Shown here: piece after piece, positions 1-40,923 of the stretch
How positions within the stretch are numbered: the first letter of the stretch is position 1
How the letters are laid out: each line of letters begins with the position of its first letter
Translations under genes and position numbers: made by a program
IMG/VR virus record: IMGVR_UViG_3300010352_001405
Location: 64,001 to 128,000 of that record
DNA: 64,000 nucleotides
From: a virus
Taxonomy: Duplodnaviria; Caudoviricetes
Reading direction: 5' to 3' (one strand)
Notes under the pieces: generated by a model
The model's database searches: none
What the model saw: only the letters and a program-made list of their open reading frames with translations
Told to the model about the DNA's origin: nothing

Positions 1-779
1 TACAAAAAGAAAATTCAAGTAAGGTTAAAAATAGATTTAAAAGCACTAATTATAATTTAAAAAAAATAGGATATACAGAAGTTCAGATAAAAAATATGAG
101 AATTGGTCCAAACCAAATAAAATATTGGACAAAAAAAGGATATAATGAAGATGATGCTAAAATTAAAATATCAGAACATCAATCTAAAATAGCTAAAGGT
201 ACCGTTAGAAAAGGAACCGGAAAATATCCAAATCAAATTGAATACTGGATAAAAAAAGGATATAACGAAAATGATGCAATAAAAAAAATTAGTGAAAGAC
301 AATCCACATTCAATTTAAAAAAATGTATAGAAAAATATGGTGAAATTGAAGGTAAACAAAAGTGGTTAGATAGACAAGAAAAATGGATGAAAAACTATAA
401 AAAGAGTAATTTTTCAAAAATTAGTCAAGAACTATTTTGGCAAATATATGATAAAATAAATAAAAATGACGAAATATATTTCGCAACATTAAAAGATAAA
501 ATGAAAGATGATAGCGGGTGTAATAATGAATACAAATTGAAATTGAAAAATAAAGTTTTAAGTCCTGATTTCTTTGTTAAAAATAAAAATAAAATAATAG
601 AATTTGACGGAACTTATTATCATAGAACTATTCCAGAAAATAAAAAAAGAGATATAATAAGAGACATTATTATTAAAGAGAATGGATATGATATACTACA
701 CGTTAATGAAAGTGAATATAAAGAAAATCCAAAGAAAATTATAAATGATTGTTTTAATTTTTTAAATGATTTAATATGA
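1..779 (+). CDS. Vsr-like (PD-(D/E)XK) free-standing homing endonuclease, 5'-partial
   Basis: Frame is open from the window start. YWxKKGY repeats, TFNLKKCIEKYG and C-terminal PDF..IIEFDGTYYH..GY..LHV. Paralogous to 18182..19303 and 27843..28805. Confidence 0.75.
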   Translation, partial: QKENSSKVKNRFKSTNYNLKKIGYTEVQIKNMRIGPNQIKYWTKKGYNEDDAKIKISEHQSKIAKGTVRKGTGKYPNQIEYWIKKGYNENDAIKKISERQSTFNLKKCIEKYGEIEGKQKWLDRQEKWMKNYKKSNFSKISQELFWQIYDKINKNDEIYFATLKDKMKDDSGCNNEYKLKLKNKVLSPDFFVKNKNKIIEFDGTYYHRTIPENKKRDIIRDIIIKENGYDILHVNESEYKENPKKIINDCFNFLNDLI

Positions 780-1120
780 GAAAATATACAGAAACTATAT
801 GTAATTCCGATTATGAAATATTGACAGACGTTGGATTCGTTGATATAAAATCAATATCTATAACCATACCTTATATTACTTGGATATTGAAAACAGAAAA
901 TTTTGAATTAAAATGTGCTGATACTCACATAGTATTTGATGATAATATGAACGAAATCTTCGTCAAGAATTTGAAAATAAATGATTTAATTTTTACTATA
1001 AATGGAATAGAAAAAGTCATATCCATAATAGAAACTGATCATGAAGAAAATATGATTGATATTGAATTATCTGAAAAATCAGAAAAAAGATTTTTTGTCA
1101 ATGGAATATTATCACATAAT
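776..1120 (+). mobile_element. IntC (115 aa) of an atypically split intein
   Basis: Block B-like LKCADTHIVF, block F/G MIDIEL..FFVNGILSHN|S; no N-terminal Cys block A. Confidence 0.85.
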
Positions 1121-1831
1121 AGCACTCTATTAAGATATATTGCAGGATTACAAACTCCAACAAGTGGTGAAATTCTTTTAAATGGAAACCCACTTACTGA
1201 AAAAGAACATATACCTATGGTTTTTCAACAATATTCATCATTTCCTTGGTATTCTGTTTTAGAAAATATTGCTCTTCCTTTGATTTTAAATAAAACTCCA
1301 AAAAAAGAAGCAAGAGAAAGAGCTATGGAAATGATTAAAATTGTTGGTTTAGAAGGACATGAAAATAAATATGCTAAATATCCATTATTATCGGGTGGTC
1401 AATTACAGAGAGTAGCCATAGCGAGAAATCTTGTCGCTAATTCGAGTATTCTTTTAATGGATGAACCATTTGGGGCGTTGGATATAGTAACACGTAGATC
1501 AATGCAGGTTTTTTTAAGAAAAATCTTTCAGGACAATAACAAAATAGATCCCACTGTTATTCTTGTAACACATGATATTAGAGAAGCTATATTTTTATCA
1601 ACAGATATATTTATTCTAGATGCAAATCCAGCCAATGTGAGATGTCATATTGAAGTGGATCTCCCCGATGTGAGAGATATACATCTTAAAAGAGAATCAA
1701 AATTTTTAGAATATGTTAATTTTATTGAGGATTTCATGGAAAAACTAGAAGTTGAAAATGAAGCAAAAAAAACAAAGAAAGTAATAGAACAAAAAAAGAA
1801 AAAAGGTAATTTTTTATTTAAACCAGTATGA
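776..1831 (+). CDS. Split-intein C-fragment fused to the C-extein of an ABC ATPase (TauB/SsuB/NrtD-like)
   Basis: After SHN: STLLRYIAGL (post-Walker A), Q-loop MVFQ, signature LSGGQ, Walker B LLMDEPFGALD, H-loop LVTHD. Walker A GK is absent. Confidence 0.85.
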   Translation: MRKYTETICNSDYEILTDVGFVDIKSISITIPYITWILKTENFELKCADTHIVFDDNMNEIFVKNLKINDLIFTINGIEKVISIIETDHEENMIDIELSEKSEKRFFVNGILSHNSTLLRYIAGLQTPTSGEILLNGNPLTEKEHIPMVFQQYSSFPWYSVLENIALPLILNKTPKKEARERAMEMIKIVGLEGHENKYAKYPLLSGGQLQRVAIARNLVANSSILLMDEPFGALDIVTRRSMQVFLRKIFQDNNKIDPTVILVTHDIREAIFLSTDIFILDANPANVRCHIEVDLPDVRDIHLKRESKFLEYVNFIEDFMEKLEVENEAKKTKKVIEQKKKKGNFLFKPV

Positions 1832-14051: not shown

Positions 14052-15674
14052 ATGTTAATAACGAAAGAAATTGAAGTAAAAATAACAAGACAAAATATCA
14101 ATCATTATAGAAAAATCGGAAAAAATGTTAATTTGAAAGATAATATTATGGTTAAACCAGAAGAGTTGCCAAAAAATTCTCATAAGATTTTAAAAGTTGT
14201 TTGTGATGTATGTGGTAAGGAATTGGATATGAAATGTCAAACTTATAATAAAAGATTATCTTGTTTAAATTATATTACGTGTAAAAAATGCAGCATTGAA
14301 AAAATTAAAAAATTAAATCTTATAAAATATGGAGTTGATAATTTTTTAATCACAGATGAATTTAAAAATAAATCAAATAAAACAAAAATAGAAAAATATA
14401 ACGATATAAATTATAACAACCCTGAAGAAAATAAAAAGACATGTTTATCGAAATATGGAAAAGAATATCCACTACAAGTTGAAGAATTTAAAGAGAAATT
14501 AAAAAAAACCAATTTTATAAAATATGGTAAAGAGTATTATTATAATATTGAAAAATTAAAAAAAACTTGTTTGGAAAGATACGGTGATACAAGCGCTATG
14601 AAAAATGAAAATATTAAAAAAAAGGCTATTAATATTAAAATGAAAAAAAGAATACCGTTATTATCGAAATATGGTATCGTCAATATAAATGAAAATAATG
14701 AATATGTTTGTAATAAAAATCACGTTTTTAATATGAATAAAGGAACCATATCTAGCAGATTGAATTACAAAACAATTTTGTGCCCGATTTGTAATCCATT
14801 GTACTCTAGTAATAGTAGCGGGTATCAAATTCAATTATCGAATTTCATTAAAGAAAATTATAATGACGAAATTTTAATAAATAACAAAAATATAATAGAT
14901 AAAGAAATAGACATTTATTTGCCAAAATTGAAATTGGGATTTGAATTCAATGGTCTTTTCTGGCATAATGAAATTGGAAAAGAAAAAAATTATCATTTAA
15001 ACAAAACAAATTTAGCGGAACAAAAAGGAATTAAACTCATCCAAATATACGAGGACGATTGGTTATATAAACAAAATATCATTAAATCCAGAATACTGAA
15101 TCTTTTAAATAAAACTCCAAATAAAATTTATGCTAGAAAATGTACAATAGAAGAAATCGAAAACAATAAATTAATTAGAGATTTTCTACAAAATAATCAT
15201 TTACAAGGATACATTGGTTCCAAAATAAAAATTGGACTTTTTTATAATAACGAACTCATTTCTTTAATGACTTTCGGTAATTTTAGAAAAGCTATGGGTC
15301 AAAAATCACTAGAACATTCATATGAAATGTTAAGATTTTGTAATAAACTAAATACTAATATTATAGGTGGAGCAAGTCGTTTATTTAAATATTTTGTAAA
15401 AAAATATAAACCAATTGAAGTAATTAGCTATGCTGATCGTAGTTGGTCTTCGGGTGATCTATACAAGAAATTAGAATTTATTCTAGTTAACAAAACCCAA
15501 CCTAATTATTATTATATTATTGACGGTATTAGAAAACATAGATTTGGTTTTAGAAAAGACATCCTTGTGAAAAACGGTGCAGATCCAAATAAAACAGAAC
15601 ACGAAATAATGTTGGATCGAAAAATATATAGAATATATGATAGTGGAAATTTGAAATTTATTTTTAAACAATGA
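14052..15674 (+). CDS. Putative homing endonuclease (KYG repeats, PD-(D/E)XK domain, Hef-like C-terminus)
   Basis: TCLxKYG repeats, EIDIYLP..GFEFNGLFWH, KIYARKC, SYADRSWS, RIYDSG. Confidence 0.7.
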   Translation: MLITKEIEVKITRQNINHYRKIGKNVNLKDNIMVKPEELPKNSHKILKVVCDVCGKELDMKCQTYNKRLSCLNYITCKKCSIEKIKKLNLIKYGVDNFLITDEFKNKSNKTKIEKYNDINYNNPEENKKTCLSKYGKEYPLQVEEFKEKLKKTNFIKYGKEYYYNIEKLKKTCLERYGDTSAMKNENIKKKAINIKMKKRIPLLSKYGIVNINENNEYVCNKNHVFNMNKGTISSRLNYKTILCPICNPLYSSNSSGYQIQLSNFIKENYNDEILINNKNIIDKEIDIYLPKLKLGFEFNGLFWHNEIGKEKNYHLNKTNLAEQKGIKLIQIYEDDWLYKQNIIKSRILNLLNKTPNKIYARKCTIEEIENNKLIRDFLQNNHLQGYIGSKIKIGLFYNNELISLMTFGNFRKAMGQKSLEHSYEMLRFCNKLNTNIIGGASRLFKYFVKKYKPIEVISYADRSWSSGDLYKKLEFILVNKTQPNYYYIIDGIRKHRFGFRKDILVKNGADPNKTEHEIMLDRKIYRIYDSGNLKFIFKQ

Positions 15675-17425: not shown

Positions 17426-18163
17426 ATGAATGAAAATGAAGTAATGAATGCACAAACGGAGAAATTTTTCTTCACTTACATTTTAGACAATCCTACTCAA
17501 TTCTATAAAGTAGAACCTGGATTTTTTAAGAATGAAGATATACAATTTATTTATACTGTTGTAAGAGATGAATTTTTAGTAAGCAAAAATAAAAAAACAC
17601 CATCCCCACAACAAATTGTGGCAATGATAAAACTTCGAGATCCAGAAGAAAAAGTATCCAACAATGTTATCAAATCTATTCTTAAAAATGACAATTCTGT
17701 ACACGATCCAGAATGGTTAGAAAAAAGATTTAAGGCTTGGCGTATGTCAAATTTAATAAAAAACGCCACGTATCAAGGTATTGAAATGATTAGAAATTTA
17801 AAAGACATAGATTATGATAATGTATCTGATGTAGCAGCACAACTCAAATCTGTTTATGCTAATTTATCTTTACTTGAAGATGACGATGAAGATCTGGGAG
17901 CTGATTTCGATGACGCCGAAATGCATAAACAAGAAACATCTAAAAATAAAATATCATCTGGATGGGGAAATGTTGATGTTTTATTACAAGGAGGATGGGA
18001 CAAAGGAACTTTTAACGTATTAATGGGGGAGACAAACGTGGGTAAGTGTTGTATGGGAAAGACAATGGTTTCCATAAAAAATAAAAAAACTGGTGAAATA
18101 AAACAAATTAAAATTGGAGAATTTTATAATTTATTAAAACCAACATTTGTTTCACGTATATAA
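17426..18163 (+). CDS. Replicative helicase (DnaB/T4 gp41-like) N-extein plus 38-aa IntN
   Basis: ISSGW..VDVLLQGG..MGETNVGK|CCMGKTMV...stop. IntN is 18047..18160. Confidence 0.85.
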   Translation: MNENEVMNAQTEKFFFTYILDNPTQFYKVEPGFFKNEDIQFIYTVVRDEFLVSKNKKTPSPQQIVAMIKLRDPEEKVSNNVIKSILKNDNSVHDPEWLEKRFKAWRMSNLIKNATYQGIEMIRNLKDIDYDNVSDVAAQLKSVYANLSLLEDDDEDLGADFDDAEMHKQETSKNKISSGWGNVDVLLQGGWDKGTFNVLMGETNVGKCCMGKTMVSIKNKKTGEIKQIKIGEFYNLLKPTFVSRI

Positions 18164-18181
18164 TAATAAAAAAACTTAATT

Positions 18182-19303
18182 ATGGAATGTAAAATTTGTA
18201 ATAAAAAAGTTAATGGAACGAAAGGTTTATCGATACACTTAATCTTATCTCACGAAGTAAATATAAAAGAATATTATGATAAATATTTAAAAAAAGAAAA
18301 TGAAGGTAATTGTTATTTTTGTGGGAAACCGTCTATTTTTTTCAATATGACCAAAGGATATCATAGGATATGTGATTCTAAGGAATGTCTAGGAAAAACT
18401 AGGGCTACTGGAACATACGAATTTTTAATGTACAAATATAATTTATCTAAAGACGAATCTATAAAATTAATGAATGAAAGAGCTTTAGATAGAGGTAAAA
18501 AAATAAAAAGTGGTTTATGGAAATCTTTTGAAAAAAATGAAAACTTTTTTAAAGAAAAATCTAGACAAAGTATTAATTTTTGGTTAAAAAGAGGATATTC
18601 TGAAGAAGAATCTAATAAAATATCAAATGAAATACAAAAAAATATAATTGAAAAAACATCAAAAAAAAGACACGAAAATAAACATTTATATTTAGATGTT
18701 AATCCAACACAATTGGCATATTGGTTAAAAAGAGGATATAGCGATGAAGAATCCAAGAAGAAAATTTCAGATAGACAAAAAACATTTACTTTAGAAAAAT
18801 GTATAGAAAAACATGGTGAAATAGAGGGATTAAAAATATGGAACGAGAGACAAAGAAAATGGAGTGAAAAAATTGAAGAAAAATATAAAAATGGAGATTT
18901 TGTAAAATTTAGAAAAGATATGACTTCATCACCTGAAAATGAATTATTTAAATCTTTGGTAGAAAAATTAAATATTAAAGATAGATCATATTATGGGAAT
19001 AATCAATATTTTAGATATTTTAAAGAGATAGGAAGAACATTTTCTTATGATTTTGTTCATGATAGAAAAATAATAGAATTTAATGGTGATTATTGGCACT
19101 GTAATCCAAAATTTTATAATAAAAATTATTATCATAAATATTTACAAATGACAGCAGAAGAAATATGGGATAATAATAAAATAAAAAATGATATTATTAT
19201 AAAAGAAGGATACGAAGTTTTATCCATATGGGAAAATGATTATAAAAACAATAAAGAAAAAGTAATTCAAGAATGTATAGATTTCTTGAATAAAAAAGAA
19301 TAA
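18182..19303 (+). CDS. Vsr-like free-standing homing endonuclease inside the split helicase gene
   Basis: C2H2-like N-terminus, WLKRGYS repeats, YDF..IIEFNGDYWHCNP..GYEVLSIWE. Confidence 0.8.
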   Translation: MECKICNKKVNGTKGLSIHLILSHEVNIKEYYDKYLKKENEGNCYFCGKPSIFFNMTKGYHRICDSKECLGKTRATGTYEFLMYKYNLSKDESIKLMNERALDRGKKIKSGLWKSFEKNENFFKEKSRQSINFWLKRGYSEEESNKISNEIQKNIIEKTSKKRHENKHLYLDVNPTQLAYWLKRGYSDEESKKKISDRQKTFTLEKCIEKHGEIEGLKIWNERQRKWSEKIEEKYKNGDFVKFRKDMTSSPENELFKSLVEKLNIKDRSYYGNNQYFRYFKEIGRTFSYDFVHDRKIIEFNGDYWHCNPKFYNKNYYHKYLQMTAEEIWDNNKIKNDIIIKEGYEVLSIWENDYKNNKEKVIQECIDFLNKKE

Positions 19304-19311
19304 ATATAAAA

Positions 19312-20391
19312 ATGTTAAATAATTTTGAAAGAAAATTTATAGATACAATAGAAATAGAAGATTGGCAAGTAGAAACTGATACTGGTTGGTCTGATATAAA
19401 ATCAATTGGGAAAACAATAGAATATGATGAATGGACATTAAAAACTGATATGGGATTAGAATTAACTTGTGCAGACACTCATATAGTTTTTGATGAAAAT
19501 GGATATGAGACTTTTGTTAAAGATTTATATTCTGGTTGTATTATAAAAACTAAATCTGGTTTACAAAAAATCTTGTCTGTTAAAAAAACTGATAAAAAAT
19601 CGAATATGTTTGATTTGCAGTTAAATGATAAAAATCACAGATTTTATACAAACGACATATTAAGTCATAATTCAATGTGGCTCTACAATATCGCTTGTAA
19701 TGCTGCAAATCAAGGAAGAAACGTGGCTGTTATAACTGTTGAAATGTCTCAACGCAAAGTCATGAAACGTCTAGGCGCTATGAGATTGAAAATTGATGTT
19801 GACCAATATGATGATATTAGTAAAGATTCTGTATTTATTAAAAACAAAATAAATCAACTCAAAAATACAAATAATGGTTTATTCAATACTGAATCCCCTG
19901 GCAAAATATTTGTTAAAAAGTTTAATACTGGGGATTGCACAATAGTAGACATAGACAATTATTTAACTAAACTCGAAGAAATGAAGGGAATTGATTTAGA
20001 TTTGGTAGTAATAGATTATATCAACTTAATGTCAGTGAGTAAATTAAATAAAGACATATCTAATAATTTATATATGAAAGGAAAACATTTGGCTGAAGGA
20101 CTCAGGTATATTGCCGATAAATTCAACTTAGCGCTCATAACAGCGACGCAAGTAGATAGGGCCGTATGGGGAGCAAATGACATTAAATTACAGGATGTTC
20201 CTGAGTCTAAAGCTGTAGCCGAAACTGCAGATACTTTTTGGGCAATAATCCGTAATCAAGAAATGAAAAAACATAATAAATATAGATTAAAAATATTAAA
20301 ATTGAGGGATGGCGATCACAAAGAAGAAACAATTTTATTTGATTTTCATCCTAAATTTTTAGTAATTGAAAATGATATAATGGAAGCATAA
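19312..20391 (+). CDS. 120-aa IntC plus helicase C-extein
   Basis: LTCADTHIVF...FYTNDILSHN|SMWLYNIA; ITVEM, VVIDYINL, TATQ, ESKAVAETAD, KLRDG. IntC is 19312..19671. Confidence 0.9.
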   Translation: MLNNFERKFIDTIEIEDWQVETDTGWSDIKSIGKTIEYDEWTLKTDMGLELTCADTHIVFDENGYETFVKDLYSGCIIKTKSGLQKILSVKKTDKKSNMFDLQLNDKNHRFYTNDILSHNSMWLYNIACNAANQGRNVAVITVEMSQRKVMKRLGAMRLKIDVDQYDDISKDSVFIKNKINQLKNTNNGLFNTESPGKIFVKKFNTGDCTIVDIDNYLTKLEEMKGIDLDLVVIDYINLMSVSKLNKDISNNLYMKGKHLAEGLRYIADKFNLALITATQVDRAVWGANDIKLQDVPESKAVAETADTFWAIIRNQEMKKHNKYRLKILKLRDGDHKEETILFDFHPKFLVIENDIMEA

Positions 20392-24300: not shown

Positions 24301-25235
24301 GCTATTAAAGTATCTCCAACAACACATGGATTTGTTGAAATAGTCTTAAAACCTTGATCAGCATAACAATCCGGAACTGATTCACCTATAACTGTGTCCC
24401 AAAATAAAACACCTGGCTCAGCCGATTTCCAAGCGTTGTGTATTATTTTTTTCCATAATTCACTGGGATTAATTTCTTTAGATACTCTTGGATTTTCAGA
24501 ATAAATAGGATATTTTTGAATATAATTTTTCTTATTTTCAATAGCCTTCATAAATTCATCATCTATTCTGACAGATATATTTGATCCAGTTATTTTACCA
24601 TCAATCATTTTAGCGTCAATAAAATCTTCACTATCAGGATGATTTATACTAATAGATAACATTAAAGCTCCTCTCCTACCATTTTGAGCCACTTCTTTAG
24701 TAGAATTAGAATATCTTTCCATAAAAGAAACTATACCAGTTGACGTTATAGCGGAATTTTTAACTGGAGATCCTTTAGGTCTTATATGAGATAAATCATG
24801 ACCTACTCCACCCCTTCTCTTCATTAATTGTATCTGTTGTTCGTCAGTTAAACAAATAGCACCATAACTATCAGATTCATTTCCAACAACATAACAATTA
24901 GATAAACTAACTATTTGTTTATTATTTCCTATTCCTGACATAGGACTTCCTTGTGGTATTATGTATTTAAATTTATCTAATGTTTCGAATATCTCTTTTT
25001 CTGTTAATGGATTTTCATATTTATTTTCAATTCTAGCAAATTCTGATGCTAATCTATTGTGCATATCTGTTGGATCTTTCTCATAATATATAATATTATC
25101 ATCTATAATATCTTTCAAACAATATTTATTAATCCAAACATCTGTTGATAATTTATCACCATCAAAATATTTTATAGTAGATTCATAAACTTCATTTTTA
25201 GAATATAATTTCTTAGTAAATTGATCGCTTCCCAT
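21330..25235 (-). CDS. nrdJ: Class II (B12-dependent) ribonucleotide reductase with intein
   Basis: SLSNC, RRGGVG, VAQNGRRGALM, NP|C..|CGEIPL, APTGSVS, GCKGITIYRDGSR, C-terminal Zn ribbon. Confidence 0.95.
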   Translation of the reverse strand: MGSDQFTKKLYSKNEVYESTIKYFDGDKLSTDVWINKYCLKDIIDDNIIYYEKDPTDMHNRLASEFARIENKYENPLTEKEIFETLDKFKYIIPQGSPMSGIGNNKQIVSLSNCYVVGNESDSYGAICLTDEQQIQLMKRRGGVGHDLSHIRPKGSPVKNSAITSTGIVSFMERYSNSTKEVAQNGRRGALMLSISINHPDSEDFIDAKMIDGKITGSNISVRIDDEFMKAIENKKNYIQKYPIYSENPRVSKEINPSELWKKIIHNAWKSAEPGVLFWDTVIGESVPDCYADQGFKTISTNPCVVGDTLIAVADGRNAVSIKQLAEEGKDVPVYSMDNEGKLVIRKMRNPRITGYDQQIYKVTIEGGISYRVTGNHVFVLRDNDRVEAKNLKYGDSLKIMTKYENKYKKSNTYYTLRNGSESIGEHRLIAQYYNKNVDLNENLVVHHKDYNGMNNNPENLVIMSKEKHDKLHTIDKLGKLNSYHSMSNKWKLDFASHPGENNPNYSGILDEEIKNHAIILTKQLGKRFSKKDWINYARKNNLPQYFTKFRNFESVTSLAKLVAIELEIDFINNDPRLVETYKKALNNGYNAEIRENCVMIEKTCENCGKYFWVNYIKREISFCSHGCSLNYINTNNNIRNKRKNTINDTYNAKGNETKQKQLKIYNDLEFNLKRIPLLKEWEKECKENEIPFRLKTKYGFSSYNELKEESVFFNHKVLSVELDGIENVYNGTVDDFHTYFITDKYFKINVLTENCGEIPLCSKDSCRLLALNLYSYVINPFTDKAYFDFDLFKKHVWIGQRLMDDMIDLEIEKIYKIIEKINSDPEEDYIKGREKQLWLDIKEKTIQGRRTGFGTTGEGDMLAALNKHYGTKSATEISVEIHKFMSINAYKSSCNLAKERGTFPIYDYNREINNPFINRLKDADKELSEMLKNYGRRNISLLTLAPTGSVSTLTQTTSGIEPAYLIAYKRRRKINQNDNKVKIDFTDAEGIDWEEYVVFHHKFVEWLKIKGFDVDEVSKMNDEKLNEIIKQSPYFNSTSNDIDWVEKVNMQGQIQKWIDHSISVTVNLPHNITEELVSKVYETGWKSGCKGITIYRDGSRQGVIVKKEEKKTEFEENNAPKRPRILECDVIRFTNKGEKWIGFIGILKDSPYEIFTGLAESFVIPAWIEKGQIRKEKIKNKEGILVSRYDFIYIDKEGYEVIMTGLNRSFAREYWNIGKMTSALLRHHIHLPSVVGIIESLNLDGDTMGTWKKGIIRMLKKYIKDDKGNGKNICPNCGSTNLVYKESCISCLDCHWSKCE
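22971..24326 (-). mobile_element. Contiguous 452-aa intein with HNH-type endonuclease
   Basis: STNP|CVVGDT...VTGNH...VHHKDYNGMNN.PENL...VYNGTVDDFHTY...TEN|CGE. Confidence 0.9.
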
Positions 25236-25287: not shown

Positions 25288-26370
25288 TTATTTAAAATTC
25301 ATGTCATTAATATACTTATTTAATTTATTTATAACATCATCTTTATAATTAATTCTTAATAATTTTAATGAATTTTTTTCACAAAATTCATTTTTTATAA
25401 TATCATGTTTTTTTATAATATCGAATTGTTTTTCACCACCCCATCTATCAACTGATTCAAAGTGTTGTATACCATCATATTCTATGCAAATATTATAATC
25501 CGATAAATAAAAGTCAAATGGTAATTTTTTAGTGTCCTTACAATCATCAAATTTTTTTTGTCTAATAAAATTAATATTTTTATTTCTTAAATATTCAACT
25601 ATTTTTTTCTCCCCGCTACTTTCATTACAAAAAATACATCCATGACCATCTAAATGATTATTTAAAGTCTGAAAAAATTCACCATGCTTATTACATATAA
25701 CTCTTATTTTATTAGATGTTCTATCAAAATTTTCAGTATCATATTCGTATTTATTATCATGCAAATTATTTAATTTTTCAATAATATCGAAATAATTTTT
25801 TTTACTATTCGGAGAACATTTATAACATCCCTTACCTTGTAAATGATTAACTGGTGTCTGCTCGAAAATACCATGAACTGGACATACTATTTTTACTTTA
25901 GTATGCATACTAATATATTCAACCAAATCATAATTATATAAATCATTATGAACCATTTTAAATTTATTAATTATAACTTCTTTATCATTCCTCTTCTTAT
26001 CAAAAAAACATTTCTTACAACCATGCCTAATATGATTATGTGGAGTTTGCTCGAAAACACCATGAATTGGACATATTATTTTTATCTTAGTGTGCATATT
26101 AATATATTCAACTAAAGAATAATCATAATAATTATCATGAATATTATTAAATCTTTTTATAAAATCATCAATTGACATATTTTTATTAGCACATTTAGGA
26201 CACCCACTTTTTAAATGAATATGATTAGCAGGTTGTTGTTCAAAAATTCCATGAACTGGACATATTATCTTTACCTTAGTCTTATTGTTAATATAATTTA
26301 CTAAAGAATAATCATATCTATCTTTATGAATTAAAATAGATTTATTTATGAAATTTTCATTTTTATCCAT
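25288..26370 (-). CDS. Putative homing endonuclease (Zn-binding repeats plus PD-(D/E)XK domain)
   Basis: YDYSLVxY..KIICPxHG..GCxxC repeats; LPFDFY..CIEYDGIQH. Confidence 0.75.
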   Translation of the reverse strand: MDKNENFINKSILIHKDRYDYSLVNYINNKTKVKIICPVHGIFEQQPANHIHLKSGCPKCANKNMSIDDFIKRFNNIHDNYYDYSLVEYINMHTKIKIICPIHGVFEQTPHNHIRHGCKKCFFDKKRNDKEVIINKFKMVHNDLYNYDLVEYISMHTKVKIVCPVHGIFEQTPVNHLQGKGCYKCSPNSKKNYFDIIEKLNNLHDNKYEYDTENFDRTSNKIRVICNKHGEFFQTLNNHLDGHGCIFCNESSGEKKIVEYLRNKNINFIRQKKFDDCKDTKKLPFDFYLSDYNICIEYDGIQHFESVDRWGGEKQFDIIKKHDIIKNEFCEKNSLKLLRINYKDDVINKLNKYINDMNFK

Positions 26371-26374
26371 ATAT

Positions 26375-27094
26375 TTATTTAAAATCCATGTCATCTAAAA
26401 TATTTAAATACCCCTTATCTTTTAATTCTCTAAGTATAGACGTGGCATATTTTTTATCTAATAGTTTAAACATATTAAAAATATTGTCGGTGAAATAATA
26501 GCTGAGTTCAACAAATATTTCAGACTTGGAATATTGTTTATCCATATTTATCAATAACATTTTGTAATAATTATTGAATATGGCTTTATTTGGTTTTCTT
26601 CTATTGACGCTAAAATCTAAATCTGTATTATTTTTTAATAAATTATATATATCTTCAGATAATTTTCTTCTGCTAGCGATTTCATCACCTCTTCTACTTT
26701 CTTCATCGAAAATACTTCCTTTTTCTATTGGAATATCACCCGAATCATAAGCATCTAATTCATTTATTCCATAATTGATATAATAAGAATTATCTTCTAA
26801 TTCTACTTTGTTTAATTTTCCATTAAAAATTGTGTCTCTTTTTAAACTATGTTTTCCTTCTAACTTATGATTGTTTGTATTATATTTAAAATAAACATCC
26901 AAATCACTTTCTGATTCATCATTATTGACAGTATTATCTATTGTAATATCTGTATCTTCTATAATATCTGTATCTTCTATAATATCTTTGGCAAAATCGT
27001 CATTTAATTCTTCTTGTATTAATAAATCTTCTTCTAATATTTCAATTTTTATTTCATCTTCTTCATTTATATTATCAGATTCTATTTCAATCAT
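26375..27094 (-). CDS. Hypothetical protein with acidic N-terminus
   Basis: 239-aa ORF. Confidence 0.55.
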   Translation of the reverse strand: MIEIESDNINEEDEIKIEILEEDLLIQEELNDDFAKDIIEDTDIIEDTDITIDNTVNNDESESDLDVYFKYNTNNHKLEGKHSLKRDTIFNGKLNKVELEDNSYYINYGINELDAYDSGDIPIEKGSIFDEESRRGDEIASRRKLSEDIYNLLKNNTDLDFSVNRRKPNKAIFNNYYKMLLINMDKQYSKSEIFVELSYYFTDNIFNMFKLLDKKYATSILRELKDKGYLNILDDMDFK

Positions 27095-27240: not shown

Positions 27241-27765
27241 ATGTCATCAAAAGATAAAAAAATAGAAACTAATATAATAACAACAGAAAAAGTCAATCAA
27301 ATAATGGAAAAAGAGAAACACGCTCTTCCATTAAAATTACACGAAAGACTTTGGTTTAGAGGTAAAGATAATTTTGGTATAAGAAAGCAGGGTATTAAAT
27401 TCGCATCAACTCAAGAAGAAATAGAAGAATATATTAAATGTAAATTATCAGTTTATTATTTTGCTGAAAAATATTGTAAAATTAAATTAGAAGACGGTTC
27501 TGTTGGTCAAATGAAACTCAGAGATTATCAAAAAGATATTATTAAACTATATACCGAAAATCGATTCAGTATATTAATGGCTAGCCGGCAAGTAGGTAAA
27601 TGTATTGATTTTAATACCAGAATATTATGCAAGGACGAACTAACGGAAAATACATTTTATATTTCTATTGGAAGACTTTATTATGATATATTATCAGAAA
27701 AACGTAAATTAAACATCTACGAAAAAATTAAACTTTTTCTATATAAAATTTTAGAAAAAATTTAA
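27241..27765 (+). CDS. terL: Terminase large subunit (T4 gp17-like) N-extein plus 54-aa IntN
   Basis: EYIKC..YFAEKY, LRDYQ, ASRQVGK|CIDFNT...stop. IntN is 27601..27762. Confidence 0.85.
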   Translation: MSSKDKKIETNIITTEKVNQIMEKEKHALPLKLHERLWFRGKDNFGIRKQGIKFASTQEEIEEYIKCKLSVYYFAEKYCKIKLEDGSVGQMKLRDYQKDIIKLYTENRFSILMASRQVGKCIDFNTRILCKDELTENTFYISIGRLYYDILSEKRKLNIYEKIKLFLYKILEKI

Positions 27766-27842
27766 ATACATTTACATTTATGTCATAAAGCCGTTTAAAC
27801 TTTTTCATATAATTTGTATATAAATAATAAAAAATACGAATT

Positions 27843-28805
27843 ATGGAAAATTTAATTACATGTAAAGTTTGTGGCAAACAATCGACGAGAATCTATGGAG
27901 CTCATTTAAAAAAACACGGTTTAACGTCTGAAGAATATTTAAAATTGTATCCTGGCTCTCCTCTTTACACTGAATCAGATAATAAACAAACCACGAAAAA
28001 TTCGGGAAAACATATGAAACAAGAAAAATATAGAAAGATGTTTTCTGAAAAAATCAGAGGCGAAAATAATCCAAATAGCAAAGCAAAAACCACAGAAGAA
28101 GAAAGAAAAAGTAGAAGTCCTTTCTCAAAAAATTTTATAAAATATAAAAATGAAAATGAAGTTTTGAATTTTTCGATGAAAGTTCAAAAAGAAATTACAC
28201 CAGAAAAAAGACCAAATAGAATAGAATATTGGTTAAATAAAGGATATTCTTATGTAGAAGCTGAAAAACAATTAACAAATAGACAAAAAACATTTTCATT
28301 GAAAAAATGTATAGAAAAATACGGAGAAGAAAAAGGTAGAGAAATATTCAGTGATAGACAAAAAAAATGGCAAAAAAGCTTAAATGAAAATGGTAATTTA
28401 AAACATGGATTTTCAAGATCTTCTCAAATCTTATTTTACGATATTTTAGAAAAATATGATTTGAAAGATCATAGACATATATTTTTTGCTACTAAAAATA
28501 AAGAATTCAATTTACCAAAAAAAGAAGGCGGAATATGGATTTATGATTATACAGATATTAAAAATAAAAAAATGATAGAATATAATGGAGATGAATATCA
28601 CGCAAATCCAAAATATTTTGAAAAAAATGATATATCACATCCGTTCAGAAAACAATATACAGCTGAACAAATATGGGAAAAAGATAAAAGGAAATTAAAT
28701 GTAGCTGAGGAAAATGGATATTCTATGCATGTAGTATGGGATTCTGAATATCGCAGTCATCCAGATAAAATTCTTCAAGAATGTCTTGATTTTCTAAATG
28801 TTTAG
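27843..28805 (+). CDS. Vsr-like free-standing homing endonuclease
   Basis: CKVC..H, YWLNKGYS, TFSLKKCIEKYG, YDY..MIEYNGDEYHANP..GY...VWD. Confidence 0.8.
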   Translation: MENLITCKVCGKQSTRIYGAHLKKHGLTSEEYLKLYPGSPLYTESDNKQTTKNSGKHMKQEKYRKMFSEKIRGENNPNSKAKTTEEERKSRSPFSKNFIKYKNENEVLNFSMKVQKEITPEKRPNRIEYWLNKGYSYVEAEKQLTNRQKTFSLKKCIEKYGEEKGREIFSDRQKKWQKSLNENGNLKHGFSRSSQILFYDILEKYDLKDHRHIFFATKNKEFNLPKKEGGIWIYDYTDIKNKKMIEYNGDEYHANPKYFEKNDISHPFRKQYTAEQIWEKDKRKLNVAEENGYSMHVVWDSEYRSHPDKILQECLDFLNV

Positions 28806-28853
28806 ATATTGTAAAACGATAGAATTTATTAGATCACAGTGACAATACCAAAC

Positions 28854-29204
28854 TCAACGCGGTATAGAAATTTTTAAGTAGCCACAGAATCCACTTTCGG
28901 AACGATAATGATCAAATCCCTTTTTTTCATAATAATATTTAATCATATCGATTAGATGTACATTATGTCCGCCTCGAGTATTAAAATCATCGGCATATAA
29001 TGTAACACTATCTGATGATTCAAATTTTTTATTTATTTTTCTTATCAATTTCGGTAATCTCTCCTTAGCTTCTTTTAATAATTTTTCTTCTCTCATTTTA
29101 GATTCAGATTCTTTTCTATTCTTTAATTCATCAAGATCGATATCATTATATTGTCTTTTTTTAACGAAATTCAGCCATTCGTTCATGCTTTTTAAATTTT
29201 CCAT
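28854..29204 (-). CDS. Hypothetical protein with CTS-like leader
   Basis: MENLKSMNEW. Confidence 0.55.
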   Translation of the reverse strand: MENLKSMNEWLNFVKKRQYNDIDLDELKNRKESESKMREEKLLKEAKERLPKLIRKINKKFESSDSVTLYADDFNTRGGHNVHLIDMIKYYYEKKGFDHYRSESGFCGYLKISIPR

Positions 29205-29255
29205 GTTTTCTTTTTTTTTTTAATATATACAATAAAAAAAAAGAAAATACAGATT

Positions 29256-29633
29256 ATGAAACACGTCAAACTATATGAAGAATATGGGTTAGTTAATAAA
29301 ATTAAAAGAAAATTATTCCCAGAAGAAATTAATGATGTTATCGATGAAATTGAAAATGATCCAAAAATTTCTAAATTGATTTATGGTCCTACTAAAGAAG
29401 ATAAATACGGAATATCTGAAGTGTGTATTGGTTATAAAATCGGAAACGATAAAGCAATAACTCTATCTGGATTTTCTAGTAATTGTCACATTAAACTATG
29501 GAAATTACCTATAGGATCTGATGGAAAAATTTTAGGGATATATTATATAGATGAAGATACAAATAGAAGGATTGGAAATTCTTTACGTGAATTAGTTAGA
29601 AAATTTAAAAGTGGAACAAGATATCAAAATTAA
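29256..29633 (+). CDS. Hypothetical protein with CTS-like leader
   Basis: MKHVKLYEEY; TAATATATA upstream. Confidence 0.6.
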   Translation: MKHVKLYEEYGLVNKIKRKLFPEEINDVIDEIENDPKISKLIYGPTKEDKYGISEVCIGYKIGNDKAITLSGFSSNCHIKLWKLPIGSDGKILGIYYIDEDTNRRIGNSLRELVRKFKSGTRYQN

Positions 29634-29736: not shown

Positions 29737-30750
29737 TTATTTATCATCATCAAAATCGAAAAAATCATCGATTGATTCGTCTTCGATGACATCGTTTGAT
29801 GGAAGTTTAGTACTAGCCTTTTTAATTGAATCTTCAGCGTAATTAAATGGTTTGTTACCATTAAGTAACTGGATGATTTTATCAACATTACTTCTTTTTT
29901 CATCAGACCATCCTTCCATAGATGGAGCGTGATCTTCCAAATTAACATTAGCTGGTCGAGATGTAACAACTTCTTTAATTTTATTTTGCCATTTTTTATC
30001 TACAATAGAAAATTTACCGTTTTCTTCAACAACAGGAGGTGTAATAAATTTATTAGTTTTATCATTCCAAATTTTAATTGGAGAATTTGTTAAGAATTGA
30101 CTGGTATCATAATTTGGCATTTCAACTGTTCCTCTACCGTCGGGTGATGGAGTTTTTACCAATTTTATAATCAATCTAAAATCTTTTCCATTCACGAAAT
30201 CGAAAATGTTACATTTTTCTCCAACATCTCCATTAATCTCAGCATTAATTTTCTGTTTAATCTTTGGACCATAAGGATAAACTAAAATTTTACCGACCAA
30301 TTCAGGATGTTGTTCATCTTCAATAATCATCACATAAGAATAAAATTTAGTACTTCTTTTTATTCTCTTTGAATTTTCAACATCTGCTTGATTATTAGAT
30401 TTGTAAAGTTTCCAAAAAGTTGCACATAAAGGACATGGTGTTTGTTGTGAAATATTCTTTTCACAATCATAATATCCAGCTAATTCAGGATAATCTTTAA
30501 AATCTGCATAATGTACATGTTTTTGAATAGCTGCTGGGCCTGTTCCCGAACCATCACGGTTAACATTTCTAATAAATCTAATAGTTGATCTGTAACCAAC
30601 GCCCTTTGGATCTGCTGCGTCTTCTAATTTTGGACGATATATACCGTCTTGGTTTTTGCTTTCTTTATTTAAAAAAGCCAATTCTTCATTTTGAACTTCA
30701 TCATTCGATTCAAATAAGAAATTTTCATCTTTGTCTTTGTATTCTGCCAT
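29737..30750 (-). CDS. Single-stranded DNA-binding protein (T4 gp32-like)
   Basis: IRFI, H..C..CPLC zinc site, YSYVMIIED..PELVGKILVY, GKDFRL, NYDTS.F, acidic C-tail. Confidence 0.8.
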   Translation of the reverse strand: MAEYKDKDENFLFESNDEVQNEELAFLNKESKNQDGIYRPKLEDAADPKGVGYRSTIRFIRNVNRDGSGTGPAAIQKHVHYADFKDYPELAGYYDCEKNISQQTPCPLCATFWKLYKSNNQADVENSKRIKRSTKFYSYVMIIEDEQHPELVGKILVYPYGPKIKQKINAEINGDVGEKCNIFDFVNGKDFRLIIKLVKTPSPDGRGTVEMPNYDTSQFLTNSPIKIWNDKTNKFITPPVVEENGKFSIVDKKWQNKIKEVVTSRPANVNLEDHAPSMEGWSDEKRSNVDKIIQLLNGNKPFNYAEDSIKKASTKLPSNDVIEDESIDDFFDFDDDK

Positions 30751-35660: not shown

Positions 35661-36461
35661 ATGATGAATGATTTAAATGACTTGTATAAAATTTATGAAG
35701 CCAATATAAAGGTAGATGATACTCCGCGCAGTACGGACAACAATCCTATAAAAGTCGGAGACATTCTTGTTGCCTTATATAATGGAAAAGAAATAAGAGG
35801 TGAAGTATTGGCTGTTTATGAAAGTTATTATCATTTGAAAGGAAAAAATGGTACGTTGAAGGTGACTATGGATGATATAACTGAACATTATCCAAAAAAT
35901 AGGACTTTTGAAAATAAAGTAAATAAAAAATTTAGTGAAATTGAATCATCTATCAAAAAAGTTAACGAAAATGTGCCAGATCAAAATCAAAAAGAAGAAC
36001 AAAAACCTTTATTAAAAAAGAAAAAAATAATAAAGGATTTTGAGAAAGAAGAAATCAAGAACAATCCTGATAATCAAGTAGATTTAACAGTGGAAAATAA
36101 CATCATGGATAATGTTAGAACTATTGGTAAAGTCGTTTATTATAAAGAAATTAAATTTAGTCAAATAAACGACATGTTCGAAAAAAAATTATTATCTAGA
36201 GAAATATATTGGTATCTTTTAACTGAAAAACAAAATGAAATTCATGTAATTAGAAATAATGATAAGGGAGTTGAAATCCAGCCTTTTGTTAGTACACTAG
36301 TTGGTCATCTTTTGAAAAAAGATAATAAATTAAATGAATCTTTTAATCAAATAAGAATTAAAGGAAATAATGGATTTTCTGTTATATCAAATATTCCACA
36401 AAATGTGCATAAACAATTATTAAATAGTTTAATTGGATTATTAAGTGAAATTAAAAAATAA
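35661..36461 (+). CDS. Hypothetical protein with SH3/KOW-like N-domain
   Basis: IKVGDIL..GEVL. Confidence 0.5.
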   Translation: MMNDLNDLYKIYEANIKVDDTPRSTDNNPIKVGDILVALYNGKEIRGEVLAVYESYYHLKGKNGTLKVTMDDITEHYPKNRTFENKVNKKFSEIESSIKKVNENVPDQNQKEEQKPLLKKKKIIKDFEKEEIKNNPDNQVDLTVENNIMDNVRTIGKVVYYKEIKFSQINDMFEKKLLSREIYWYLLTEKQNEIHVIRNNDKGVEIQPFVSTLVGHLLKKDNKLNESFNQIRIKGNNGFSVISNIPQNVHKQLLNSLIGLLSEIKK

Positions 36462-36535
36462 TTATGTGATAATAAAAAAACAAAACCGACTTCTTCTACA
36501 AACCAGCATGAATCAACATCAAGAGATTTAAAAAC

Positions 36536-37285
36536 ATGATAAAGAATTTTAAAATATTTGAACAATTAAATATATCAGATATTGATCCTTATGGTGAAGA
36601 AGACTGGAACGATGATAATGATACTCCGATAATAACTATCGCTAAAAAACAAAATATACCATTAGATAAAATAACATATTTAGATTGTTGTAATAATAGA
36701 TTAACGAATTTAGAAGGAATTGAACATTTAACGAATTTAGAGATATTATATTGTTCTAATAATCAATTAACTAATTTAGATGGAATTGAACATTTAACTG
36801 ATTTAAAAACATTATATTGTTCTTATAATTCATTAACTAGTTTAGAAGGCATTGAAAGTTTAACGAATTTAAGATATTTACATTGTTCTAATAATCAATT
36901 AACTAGTTTAGAAGGAATTGAACAATTAACGAATTTAGAGATATTATATTGTTATAATAATGAATTAACCAGTTTAGAAGGAATTGAACATTTAACTGAT
37001 TTAAAAACATTATATTGTTCTTATAATTCATTAACTATTTTGGAAGGTATTGAACATTTAACTAATTTAAGAGAATTATATTGTCATAATAATCAATTAA
37101 CTAATTTAAATGGTATTGAACATTTGACTAATTTACAAGTATTATCTTGTTATAGTAATCGATTAACTAGTTTAGAAGGAATTGAACATTTAACTAATTT
37201 AAGATATTTACATTGTTCTAATAATAGATTCACCCAAGAATATAAAAATTATTTAAAATTAAAATTAAAAATACGTATAGAGTAA
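36536..37285 (+). CDS. Leucine-rich repeat protein (22-aa repeats)
   Basis: About 9 copies of LxxLYCxxNxLTxLEGIEHLTN; MIKNFKIFE leader and DPYGEEDW. Confidence 0.9.
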   Translation: MIKNFKIFEQLNISDIDPYGEEDWNDDNDTPIITIAKKQNIPLDKITYLDCCNNRLTNLEGIEHLTNLEILYCSNNQLTNLDGIEHLTDLKTLYCSYNSLTSLEGIESLTNLRYLHCSNNQLTSLEGIEQLTNLEILYCYNNELTSLEGIEHLTDLKTLYCSYNSLTILEGIEHLTNLRELYCHNNQLTNLNGIEHLTNLQVLSCYSNRLTSLEGIEHLTNLRYLHCSNNRFTQEYKNYLKLKLKIRIE

Positions 37286-37395
37286 TAAATATACTATTAG
37301 ATCAAATAAGTAGATATAATATTATTTTTTTGTTTTAATATATAGTTTTATAATATAACATTTAAAGATGTTTATTAAAAAAAAATAAAAAAACC

Positions 37396-37803
37396 ATGAA
37401 TAATTTAAAGACATACACACAGTACAACGAAGGAATATTAATTCCTAAAAAAAATGACGATGTTGCAAAGAAAATTTTAAATTACATAACAGAACATATT
37501 GATGATCGATATTATGTTAATTTTTCTAAAAAAGAACAAATTTATATTGCCGACATTAATTTATCAGAAATGCCTGATGATCCTCTTGGATATACAGATT
37601 GGAATAGTGATGATATTTTCACATTATACAGTTCTATATCATATGTGAAAATTGATGATAAACAATTAGATGTTTCTGATTATTTGATAAAAAAAATATA
37701 CAGAACATTTGAAAATATAGATAATGTTAAAAAACAAAAAGAAAGAAAAGGAAATGTTAATACAAATAAAAAATTAAATATGGATGATATTAGGAGAATT
37801 TAA
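37396..37803 (+). CDS. Paralog array member 1
   Basis: MNNLKTYTQYNE; degenerate DPLGYTDW. Confidence 0.65.
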   Translation: MNNLKTYTQYNEGILIPKKNDDVAKKILNYITEHIDDRYYVNFSKKEQIYIADINLSEMPDDPLGYTDWNSDDIFTLYSSISYVKIDDKQLDVSDYLIKKIYRTFENIDNVKKQKERKGNVNTNKKLNMDDIRRI

Positions 37804-37819
37804 AAAAAATAAAAAAATC

Positions 37820-38245
37820 ATGAATAATTTGAAGACATATACACAATACAACGAATCATTGTTTTTTAATAAAGATAATAAAAGACTCGATAAACTTATA
37901 GAAATTATAAAGAAAAATTTTGATAAAAGATATCTAACGGGGATTTATTATGATGATGATGGTCATGAGTTTACTTATACATTAAGATGTAATAAAGAAA
38001 ATAAACATCTAGTGGTTGATCCATACGATGAAGAAAATTGGGAAGAAAATTCCGATTTGTTAATAAAAGTTGAACACGGTTTTGATGATAGTTATAGAGT
38101 AATAGTAAATGGAGTAAAATTAAATACATCGAATTCAAAAGCTAAAAAATTATATAATTTTTTTTGTAACCCAGATAAAGATAAAATAAAAAAGGAAGAA
38201 TTGATTAAAAAAAAGAATATTAGAAATTTCATAGATGAAATGTAA
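37820..38245 (+). CDS. Paralog array member 2
   Basis: MNNLKTYTQYNE (start 37820); DPYDEENW. Confidence 0.65.
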   Translation: MNNLKTYTQYNESLFFNKDNKRLDKLIEIIKKNFDKRYLTGIYYDDDGHEFTYTLRCNKENKHLVVDPYDEENWEENSDLLIKVEHGFDDSYRVIVNGVKLNTSNSKAKKLYNFFCNPDKDKIKKEELIKKKNIRNFIDEM

Positions 38246-38260
38246 AAAAATAAAAAATCC

Positions 38261-38677
38261 ATGAACAATATAAAGACATACATACAATACAATGAAGGAA
38301 GATTGATATCAAAAAAACACGATAATGTTGCAAAGAAAATTTTAAAATATATCAATAAATATGATGTGGATTATAATTTTAGTATGACATTAAATGGTTA
38401 CTATTTTCATATAGATTCTTCAAAAATAAAAAGATTAAATGATCCTTACAACGAAGAAGATTGGGGAACTGAAAGGATTAACATGTCTATTAAGAAAGAA
38501 AATGGTGAGTTATCGACATTCTATATTCTGTCTATTGAATACGAAGAAATGGAAGTTTCTAATTATTTAGCCAAAAAAATATATAGATCATTTGAAAATA
38601 TGGATAATATTAAGAAAGAAAGAAAGAGAAATGCCGAAGCAAATAAAGCATTAGATTTATTAAATAAAATAAATTAA
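38261..38677 (+). CDS. Paralog array member 3
   Basis: MNNIKTYIQYNE; DPYNEEDW. Confidence 0.65.
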   Translation: MNNIKTYIQYNEGRLISKKHDNVAKKILKYINKYDVDYNFSMTLNGYYFHIDSSKIKRLNDPYNEEDWGTERINMSIKKENGELSTFYILSIEYEEMEVSNYLAKKIYRSFENMDNIKKERKRNAEANKALDLLNKIN

Positions 38678-38681
38678 AAAT

Positions 38682-39077
38682 ATGAATAATGTTCAATCAT
38701 ATATTCAATACAATGAGGAATTATTTTTCGGTTCTAAATATAGAAATTTAGTTAATAAATTATACTATTATATATCTAAGATGAGCATAAATGATATTGT
38801 AGTATACGATAATATTTGTCGTATTCACATTATTGCTAATAATAATAAAGAAGTCGATCCATATGGTGAAGAAAATTGGGGTGAAGATTTGATTGTAGAA
38901 GTATTTTTAGAAGAACATTATCCTTATTTAAGGATAAACGGTGATATGGTAGATATTAAATTAAGAGAGGCTAGAAATTTAAGTAATTTGATAAAAAAAA
39001 GATTAGTTAAAAAAGAAAAAGATGAAAGAGATGAAAGAATAAATAGAGCAACTAGAGGATTTTTATCAAAAAAATAG
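38682..39077 (+). CDS. Paralog array member 4
   Basis: MNNVQSYIQYNE; DPYGEENW. Confidence 0.65.
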   Translation: MNNVQSYIQYNEELFFGSKYRNLVNKLYYYISKMSINDIVVYDNICRIHIIANNNKEVDPYGEENWGEDLIVEVFLEEHYPYLRINGDMVDIKLREARNLSNLIKKRLVKKEKDERDERINRATRGFLSKK

Positions 39078-39123
39078 AATATAAATATTTATATATAATA
39101 TAAAAAAAATAATCATAAACAAA

Positions 39124-39540
39124 ATGGCAAAAGAAAAAATAAACAATTTGTTGAAATTTGAAGAATATGATCATCTTCAACCACATCAAAAACCAACAAA
39201 GAAAACAGAAATTGGCGGATTTGCTGTTTTAGAAGGACTATCCGTCAAAGAATTGATCAAAATGGCCGCTGAAAAATCAGGCAAATCAAAAAAAGAATTG
39301 AAAAATCTTTCTCCTAAAAAATTGAAAAAAATTATTGGTGAAAATAAAATTAAAATCGGAAAACCAAAAGAAAAAAAAGTTGAAAAACCCGAAGTTCAAG
39401 AAGAAGAAAAGGAAAAAGAAGAAGTAAAAGAAAATTTATTAATAGAAAAGAAAAAAGCTTCAGCCAAACAACTAGCCGCTAGAAAAAGATTTATAGAAAT
39501 GATCAAAAAGAATAAAAAAGAAAAAGAAAAGGAAGATTAA
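39124..39540 (+). CDS. Lys/Glu-rich protein, possible internal DNA-binding protein
   Basis: LLKFEEY; ASAKQLAARKRF. Confidence 0.55.
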   Translation: MAKEKINNLLKFEEYDHLQPHQKPTKKTEIGGFAVLEGLSVKELIKMAAEKSGKSKKELKNLSPKKLKKIIGENKIKIGKPKEKKVEKPEVQEEEKEKEEVKENLLIEKKKASAKQLAARKRFIEMIKKNKKEKEKED

Positions 39541-39564
39541 TTAAAAAAAAATAAATAAAAACAC

Positions 39565-40835: not shown

Positions 40836-40923
40836 GTTTTTTTATTTTTTTTTTATCTTAAACATATATATTAAAATAAAAAAATAATATTATATCTACT
40901 TATTTGATCTAATAGTATATTTA

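Follow-up and report, generated by a model that had tools for sequence, protein, structure and literature searches.

A large-terminase gene broken at Walker A by an atypically split intein in a megaphage fragment, with a C-terminal half probably encoded at an unlinked locus

In phages, split inteins are familiar from "fractured genes" whose parts lie side by side, and natural split inteins with truly unlinked halves are, to our knowledge, textbook rarities, represented by cyanobacterial DnaE and the PolB of Nanoarchaeum. A gp17-like terminase locus is among the 26 fractured-gene loci described by Dassa et al. (2009, PMC2677866), and the same source treats cyanobacterial dnaE and Nanoarchaeum equitans polB as unlinked split-intein genes. 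Split inteins hosted by the large terminase (TerL) also serve as protein-engineering tools, namely AceL-TerL, with an N-terminal intein fragment (IntN) of 25 aa, and GOS-TerL, with an IntN of 37 aa and a C-terminal intein fragment (IntC) of ~104 aa (PMC11766414). Here, we describe a terL locus in a 64,000-nt stretch of DNA from a tailed phage (the window), which is contig positions 64,001-128,000 of the IMG/VR record IMGVR_UViG_3300010352_001405. At this locus TerL breaks off at the Walker A motif, runs into an IntN and is followed by a homing endonuclease gene, but not by the other half of terL.

The contig is linear, 163,324 bp long and ~25% G+C, contains no N runs, and has a CheckV completeness of 23% (genome ~700 kb). 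It is a megaphage fragment, because full-length relatives of the N-terminal TerL portion (the N-extein) are carried on contigs of 600-736 kb. Comparison with these and other relatives makes it probable, in our judgment, that terL of this phage is broken at Walker A by an atypically split intein, that the unlinked C-half lies outside the contig, and that trans-splicing rebuilds TerL. The locus consists of the following features, given in window positions, as are all positions below unless they are said to be those of the contig or of another genome.

27241..27600, + strand: TerL N-extein, residues 1-120, ending at the Walker A motif ASRQVGK (family match, identity to a full-length TerL, dN/dS)
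27601..27765, + strand: IntN, 54 aa, of an atypically split class-1 intein (Cys1), plus the stop codon (homologs, AlphaFold2 [AF2] model, dN/dS)
27843..28805, + strand: predicted free-standing Vsr-like homing endonuclease, 320 aa, with an N-terminal zinc-finger-like CxxC...H motif (phrog_22677, E 6.6e-23; Foldseek)

The first two features form a single open reading frame (ORF) of 174 aa (27241-27765, +), which has no Pfam match and whose similarity to the large-terminase family is confined to residues 46-121 (phrog_5989, E 2.3e-19). Identity is 74% with residues 4-125 of TerL P0001 (778 aa) and 66-74% with complete TerLs of 770-778 aa, in which the alignment runs from the N-terminus as far as residue ~125; the N-extein shares 56-76% identity with the N-termini of PF03237-bearing TerLs of 690-780 aa. 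What the ORF holds of a T4-type TerL (Terminase_6N, PF03237) is the N-terminal region and the Walker A P-loop; the rest of the ATPase (Walker B and coupling motif) and the C-terminal nuclease domain are absent both from the ORF and from the whole contig, while in relatives the separate IntC-TerL-C genes encode them. Homology stops at the Walker A lysine, after which full-length relatives go on with Thr and the 174-aa ORF with Cys. This residue, C121, is the first-residue nucleophile of an intein, and it is Cys in 118/118 parsed homologs.

A collection of 5.8 billion proteins yielded 404 homologs of the ORF (95-305 aa, E <= 0.001), and most of those listed are 166-189 aa long and share the architecture of a TerL N-half followed by IntN. 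The 54-aa tail is kept in 118 of the 120 listed homologs of ~170-180 aa, with an IntN length of 52-57 aa and Cys as first residue across the 118 that were parsed. In an alignment of 35 sequences the Cys after GK is invariant, as are E161, K164, and Y168 near the end of IntN. Both parts of the ORF are under purifying selection (omega ~0.13-0.18): relative to the ortholog in G001, the nearest for which DNA was available, dN/dS by the Nei-Gojobori method is 0.171/1.365 for the extein and 0.158/0.881 for IntN. The AF2 model of IntN has a beta-hairpin (strands 127-131 and 138-142) and two helices (143-154 and 159-173) at a pLDDT of 83-96. A protein identical to the 174-aa N-half is recorded on 24 contigs.

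The endonuclease ORF begins 77 nt past the IntN ORF and belongs to the fractured-gene endonuclease family described by Dassa et al. (PMC2677866). Its Pfam match (MTES_1575) is weak; its AF2 model has a mean pLDDT of 77, rising above 90 in the C-terminal domain, and the top Foldseek matches of that model are Escherichia coli Vsr (1vsr) and the catalytic domain of I-Bth0305I (3r3p, probability 0.99, TM 0.63 on target). The ortholog in G001 is 84% identical, orthologs adjoin terL breaks in 23 relatives, and the ORF is paralogous to ORF 18182-19303 at a helicase locus in the window and to the endonucleases at the other two breaks on the contig. Downstream of it, two further items bear on the missing half.

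28798..28842, + strand: 14-codon ORF, starting in the alternate frame of the endonuclease 3' end; not a feature
28854..29633, both strands: variable slot with two small ORFs of 116 aa (-) and 125 aa (+), without homologs in relatives

From the endonuclease stop it is 48 nt to the stop of the convergent 116-aa gene (28854-29204). The initial annotation, made from the sequence alone, had described a TerL N-half with no adjacent C-half, followed by an unrelated convergent gene, and the ORFs, the limits of homology and the 48-nt gap all bear this out. Its comparison of the 14-codon ORF with the starts of IntC sequences did not hold up: the ORF exists, but the likeness is not real. Where relatives keep the halves adjacent, the ATG of IntC overlaps the stop codon of the endonuclease (ATGA), and the TerL-type IntC starts M(K/R)K.L.NIIYFLI.LIEK.EY; nothing similar to this head follows the endonuclease stop in any frame. 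We therefore reject the 14-codon ORF as a vestige of IntC, with whose conserved head it shares no likeness, and regard it as a product of chance. The two ORFs of the variable slot have no Pfam or PHROG family, and the same position in G001, G002, and LR756501.1 holds other ORFs between conserved flanks.

No TerL C-extein was found on the 163,324-bp contig by tblastn with 21 TerL or IntC-TerL-C proteins, and none better than E 0.2 by a profile hidden Markov model (HMM) of eleven IntC-TerL-C proteins run with --max on the six-frame translation of the contig. The only matches of this profile were the IntC domains of three other fractured genes (profile positions 30-149); of the intein fragments on the contig the TerL IntN alone has no partner, and none of them is an orphan IntC. 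Two candidates were rejected. Repeated tblastn matches at contig 40917-41063 (E 0.65-6.5) cover no more than ~20-45 residues past the P-loop and do not represent a C-half, and a "terminase" match (phrog_36964) at contig 157820-158956 is a ClpB-like AAA+ gene matched via its inteins, not TerL. A regular-expression search for HN[CST] near ORF starts was uninformative. If located on the same molecule, the phage's own C-half lies at least 71.6 kb downstream or at least 91.2 kb upstream.

Relatives give a picture of what such a C-half looks like and where it may lie. Alignment of the N-half identified 80 IMG/VR loci. In ~15 of them terL is contiguous, once with a large intein at the same site, and in ~44 it is split, the halves lying on one strand within 41-2606 nt of each other; these halves either abut or flank one or two endonuclease genes (gap 0.85-2.6 kb). 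At the remaining loci the C-half is not within 4 kb or the flank is too short to tell. At L066:3974-6730 and L093:3992-6720 the intein splits terL into two genes just 41-42 nt apart that have no endonuclease gene between them, a "fractured" gene in which the endonuclease was lost or never present. Partner ORFs are 725-760 aa long and open with an IntC of ~147 aa, which has CAD.H in block B and ends in S(H/L)N (HN in 78 and LN in 34 of the parsed relatives, with Thr next); the following T(V/I)SAA is TerL from residue 121 and restores GKT. A search of PDB sequences with IntC found the gp41-1 intein alone, and weakly (E 0.016). An ORF with CADxH and HN motifs leading into the rest of TerL, as the initial annotation had anticipated, is thus present in relatives, and none occurs on the 163-kb contig. 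Several of the loci left open by the count were resolved by whole-record searches (G001-G009), which gave these separations of the TerL halves.

G001 and G005: 12.6 kb, same strand
G002: 12.9 kb, same strand
G006: 9.6 kb, same strand
G007: 5 kb, same strand
G009: 2.8 kb, same strand
G004: 3.5 kb, opposite strands
G008: 22 kb, opposite strands

The 118-kb contig G003 carries only an N-half, without a partner. A distant, separately encoded IntC-TerL-C gene is the normal state in the clade, and no additional intact terL was found in relatives with both halves on record. Genes flanking terL in more distant relatives are without homologs on the contig and so give no hint of position. The distant IntC-TerL-C locus first suggested for this phage agrees with the dispersed halves of its relatives, and the gene of this phage, whose own C-half was not found, would be fully unlinked, at a distance of at least 71.6 or at least 91.2 kb.

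As a control we used the complete genome of an uncultured phage, GenBank LR756501.1 (735,411 bp), which carries both halves.

LR756501.1 623,865-624,410, - strand: TerL N-half
LR756501.1 609,226-611,493, - strand: IntC-TerL-C ORF, 755 aa

A gap of 12.9 kb divides them, and of the 13 ORFs of at least 90 aa in that gap several are on the + strand. Apart from this pair, TerL-like sequence occurs in the genome only in a 390-aa ORF at ~699.9-701.0 kb (L128:1447-2619, -), which is 47% identical to TerL residues 16-408, lacks the nuclease domain and has SRQMGIT in place of SRQSGKT, the Walker A lysine being replaced. An intact second terL, raised at the outset as a possibility that would overturn the idea of a split gene, is therefore not seen in this complete genome, its one paralog being truncated and without the Walker A lysine. 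The split pair is the only catalytically plausible terminase of LR756501.1, from which we infer that trans-splicing is the route by which the phages of this clade make TerL. G011 and G012 likewise have ATPase-only TerL-like ORFs, of 302 and 256 aa respectively, and the contig studied here has none.

Gene order downstream of the endonuclease suggests how the C-half came to be missing. Three features mark the comparison with G001, G002, G006, and LR756501.1.

29737..30750, - strand: gp32-like single-stranded DNA-binding (SSB) protein, the first downstream synteny anchor (phrog_224, E 2.9e-24)
35661..36461, + strand: 266-aa gene, the last gene colinear with relatives (orthologs 58-65% identical in all four)
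36462..39564, + strand: synteny breakpoint and ~3 kb of genes without an LR756501.1 counterpart (tblastn map of the contig's own ORFs on LR756501.1)

Orthologs of the gp32-like gene, 72-75% identical, occupy the same relative position in all four relatives. IntC-TerL-C directly follows the 266-aa gene in G006; in G001, G002, and LR756501.1 one to four ORFs lie between the two, among them, in G001 and G002, a second endonuclease gene. The contig is colinear (inverted) with LR756501.1 681-614.5 kb over contig 44-100.5 kb, and with G001 and G006 over contig 67-100.5 kb. Past the breakpoint it matches LR756501.1 713-733 kb, instead of 609-614 kb, and then 196-235 kb; in LR756501.1 the block after the breakpoint is located at a distance of ~100 kb. 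None of the G001 genes lying past the C-half has a homolog on the contig. Since synteny switches just after the 266-aa gene, where relatives hold their C-half, a rearrangement breakpoint at ~36.46-36.54 kb appears to have carried the C-half away. The junction at 28.8 kb is sound, because the same gene order and the variable slot are found in four independent assemblies.

Taken over its length, the contig is mosaic, with at least five blocks whose counterparts in LR756501.1 lie at 165-276, 683-685, 614-681, 713-733, and 196-235 kb, and these comparisons point to extensive rearrangement among related megaphages, often beside endonuclease genes. A 540-aa free-standing endonuclease-like gene lies at 14052-15674 (+). 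Its relatives (483 aa, 50% identical) stand directly upstream of IntC-TerL-C in G001 and G002, so that in those two genomes the locus of the C-half is marked by another endonuclease family.

We propose that an atypically split intein interrupts the large-terminase gene at the P-loop (GK/T), and that the locus in the window is its 5' half, with a Vsr-like homing endonuclease of the kind that accompanies such breaks next to it. The partner gene would encode an IntC of ~147 aa, Thr+1 and ~610 aa of TerL, comprising the rest of the ATPase and the nuclease, and genome rearrangement would have parted it from the N-half, leaving it outside the 163-kb fragment. Once translated, the halves would associate via their intein fragments, and trans-splicing would join GK to T, giving an active terminase of ~730 aa. 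What we observed is the build and conservation of the N-half, the lack of a C-half on the contig and the dispersal of the halves in relatives; that this phage has a C-half of its own, and that the two would splice, we infer.

Several observations weigh against this proposal. The phage's own IntC-TerL-C gene was not found on a contig that represents ~23% of the genome, the IMG/VR loci that bear a C-half are at most 80% identical to the contig at the DNA level, and no cluster of the C-half family has the contig count of the N-half (24). A promoter and terminator scan around the terL locus gave promoter counts equal to those of shuffles and no terminator. The breakpoint near 36.5 kb could also be an assembly chimera, and in a broader form of this objection the contig would be chimeric or collapsed either there or after the endonuclease, with the real C-half ~9-13 kb downstream as in G001, G002, G006, and LR756501.1. 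Assembling AT-rich megaphages with many paralogous endonuclease genes from metagenomes is error-prone, and the synteny break falls exactly at the C-half position of the relatives; yet the order from the TerL N-half through the endonuclease, the variable slot and the SSB gene to the 266-aa gene recurs across independent assemblies, and the sequence at the 36.5-kb break is ~3 kb of unique genes, not a shared repeat. We consider such an artefact quite unlikely, and even if it were real, the halves would be ~9-13 kb apart and separately transcribed.

It is also unlikely, in our view, that the N-half is a relic whose C-half disappeared when the region past the 266-aa gene was rearranged, with another terminase in the remaining ~77% of the genome and the 174-aa ORF non-functional or repurposed. 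The lack of a C-half on 163 kb of a genome just ~23% complete would fit such a loss, as would the second TerL-like paralog in related megaphages, but the ORF is intact, conserves Cys1, Walker A and the full IntN tail under an omega of ~0.13-0.18, and recurs as an identical protein on 24 contigs. The paralog in LR756501.1, truncated and without the Walker A lysine, cannot replace TerL, and relatives with both halves show no additional intact terL. Very improbable is a further scenario, in which the TerL IntN is served in trans by the IntC of the helicase, the ABC ATPase or the ClpB-like protein, giving hybrid proteins or a regulator. The four inteins are indeed related, and the TerL-type IntC shares 33-44% identity with the IntCs of the other three (41% with that of the helicase); however, the TerL IntN is barely similar to the other IntNs on the contig (E 3.8), its 24-aa helical tail is missing from them and matches the TerL-type IntC head only, hybrid P-loop proteins would be non-functional, and the TerL N-half is always paired with a TerL C-half in relatives. 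We thus retain a terL broken by a split intein, with its C-half at an unlinked locus, as the probable explanation.

The IntN tail deserves attention in its own right. Within the IntN consensus, the final 18 residues (TFLEKIKLFLYKILEKIE) find their best match in the IntC consensus at positions 4-21 (NFLKNIIYFLIQLIEKYE), with 8 identities, a score reached by 2 of 3000 composition-preserving shuffles. Both the tail (27706-27765), which the AF2 model renders as a confident helix, and the IntC heads of relatives (e.g., L034:1551-1620) are conserved, and the three other split inteins on the contig have neither piece. Tail and head may derive from a duplication in the event that split the intein, retained on both sides. 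Tentatively, the IntN hairpin and the IntC head could form an affinity and specificity module through which unlinked TerL halves meet and stay orthogonal to the three other split inteins, so that dispersal would be tolerated or would even gate packaging on two transcription units; we think this doubtful, and a role of the duplicated segment in fragment association or orthogonality is speculation.

The three other breaks on the contig are complete sets of IntN, endonuclease and IntC, in genes for an ABC-type ATPase, a DnaB-type helicase, and a ClpB-like AAA+ protein.

17426..20391, + strand: DnaB-type helicase fractured gene, consisting of N-extein plus IntN, a Vsr-like endonuclease (18182-19303) and a 120-aa IntC plus C-extein (ORF translations)
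776..1831, + strand: ABC-type ATPase IntC plus C-extein (IntC match at contig 64815-65123)
contig 155-157 kb: ClpB-like AAA+ fractured gene (IntN and IntC searches)

The ABC-type ATPase set lies at contig 63.5-65.8 kb, with its IntN match (contig 63528-63626) just before the window. The N-part of the ClpB/ClpC-like AAA+ gene, also outside the window (L003:397-2877, -; contig 156,716-159,196), carries two different inteins: its first Walker A (GVGK/A...THN/T) contains a contiguous LAGLIDADG-type intein that starts with Ala, and its second P-loop (GVGK/C) is a split-intein break with IntC ~1.2 kb downstream. A contiguous intein with an HNH-like insert (..HHKDYNGMNNNPENLV..) is present in the 1301-aa ribonucleotide reductase at 21330-25235 (-), beside which lies a free-standing 368-aa HNH/DUF723 endonuclease gene (25288-26394; phrog_559, E 4.6e-89).

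Within this clade terL exists as an intact gene, as a gene containing an intein, as split halves that abut or flank one or two endonuclease genes, as halves dispersed by 3-22 kb on either strand, and as an N-half partnerless within 72-91 kb. These states form a natural series for an essential gene that comes to rely permanently on protein trans-splicing. Where TerL is the marker for annotating huge phages or inferring their phylogeny, pipelines would meet either a 120-aa stub or an N-terminally odd 750-aa protein. An intein with a 54-aa IntN and helical extensions may in addition serve as an orthogonal tool beside AceL-TerL and GOS-TerL.

Split TerL inteins and fractured genes are already known, and it is the dispersed layout that is new; the literature we searched, which did not cover the original AceL-TerL and GOS-TerL papers, contained no description of dispersed split-intein halves in a phage, nor of inteins in papers on huge phages. 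The locus resembles the fractured genes of Dassa et al. (PMC2677866) in the free-standing homing endonuclease gene at the break, and the three other interrupted genes of the contig, together with most relatives of terL, fit that scheme exactly. It departs from it in that the C-half is not beside the endonuclease and the halves are dispersed (by at least 71.6 kb here and by 2.8-22 kb in relatives, sometimes on opposite strands), and in its combination of a short IntN with a long IntC, where the inteins of 2009 have an IntN of 88-105 aa (PMC2677866). The endonuclease itself resembles I-Bth0305I and Vsr-like (EDxHD) enzymes in the predicted fold of its C-terminal domain and in being free-standing at an intein break; its N-terminal two thirds, with the zinc-finger-like motif and helical repeats, have no solved counterpart.

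Compared by description, the intein shares with AceL-TerL, GOS-TerL, and Cat-TerL a TerL host and an IntN much shorter than IntC. Unlike AceL-TerL and GOS-TerL, it has an IntN of 54 aa and, judging by relatives, an IntC of ~147 aa; the extra length lies in a C-terminal helical hairpin on IntN and a head of ~30 aa on IntC, which are mutually alike. With split DnaE and PolB the proposed system would have in common an essential enzyme made from two separate loci, each with part of a split intein, and joined by protein trans-splicing. Their layout, with both halves at separate loci of one genome, is seen in LR756501.1 and in seven other contigs; of the phage studied here we have the N-half only. 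DnaE and PolB, replicative polymerases of cells, are split at canonical sites and have no endonuclease associated with them, whereas the protein here is the ATPase-nuclease of phage packaging, from a lineage in which all the stages between a contiguous and a dispersed gene occur together.

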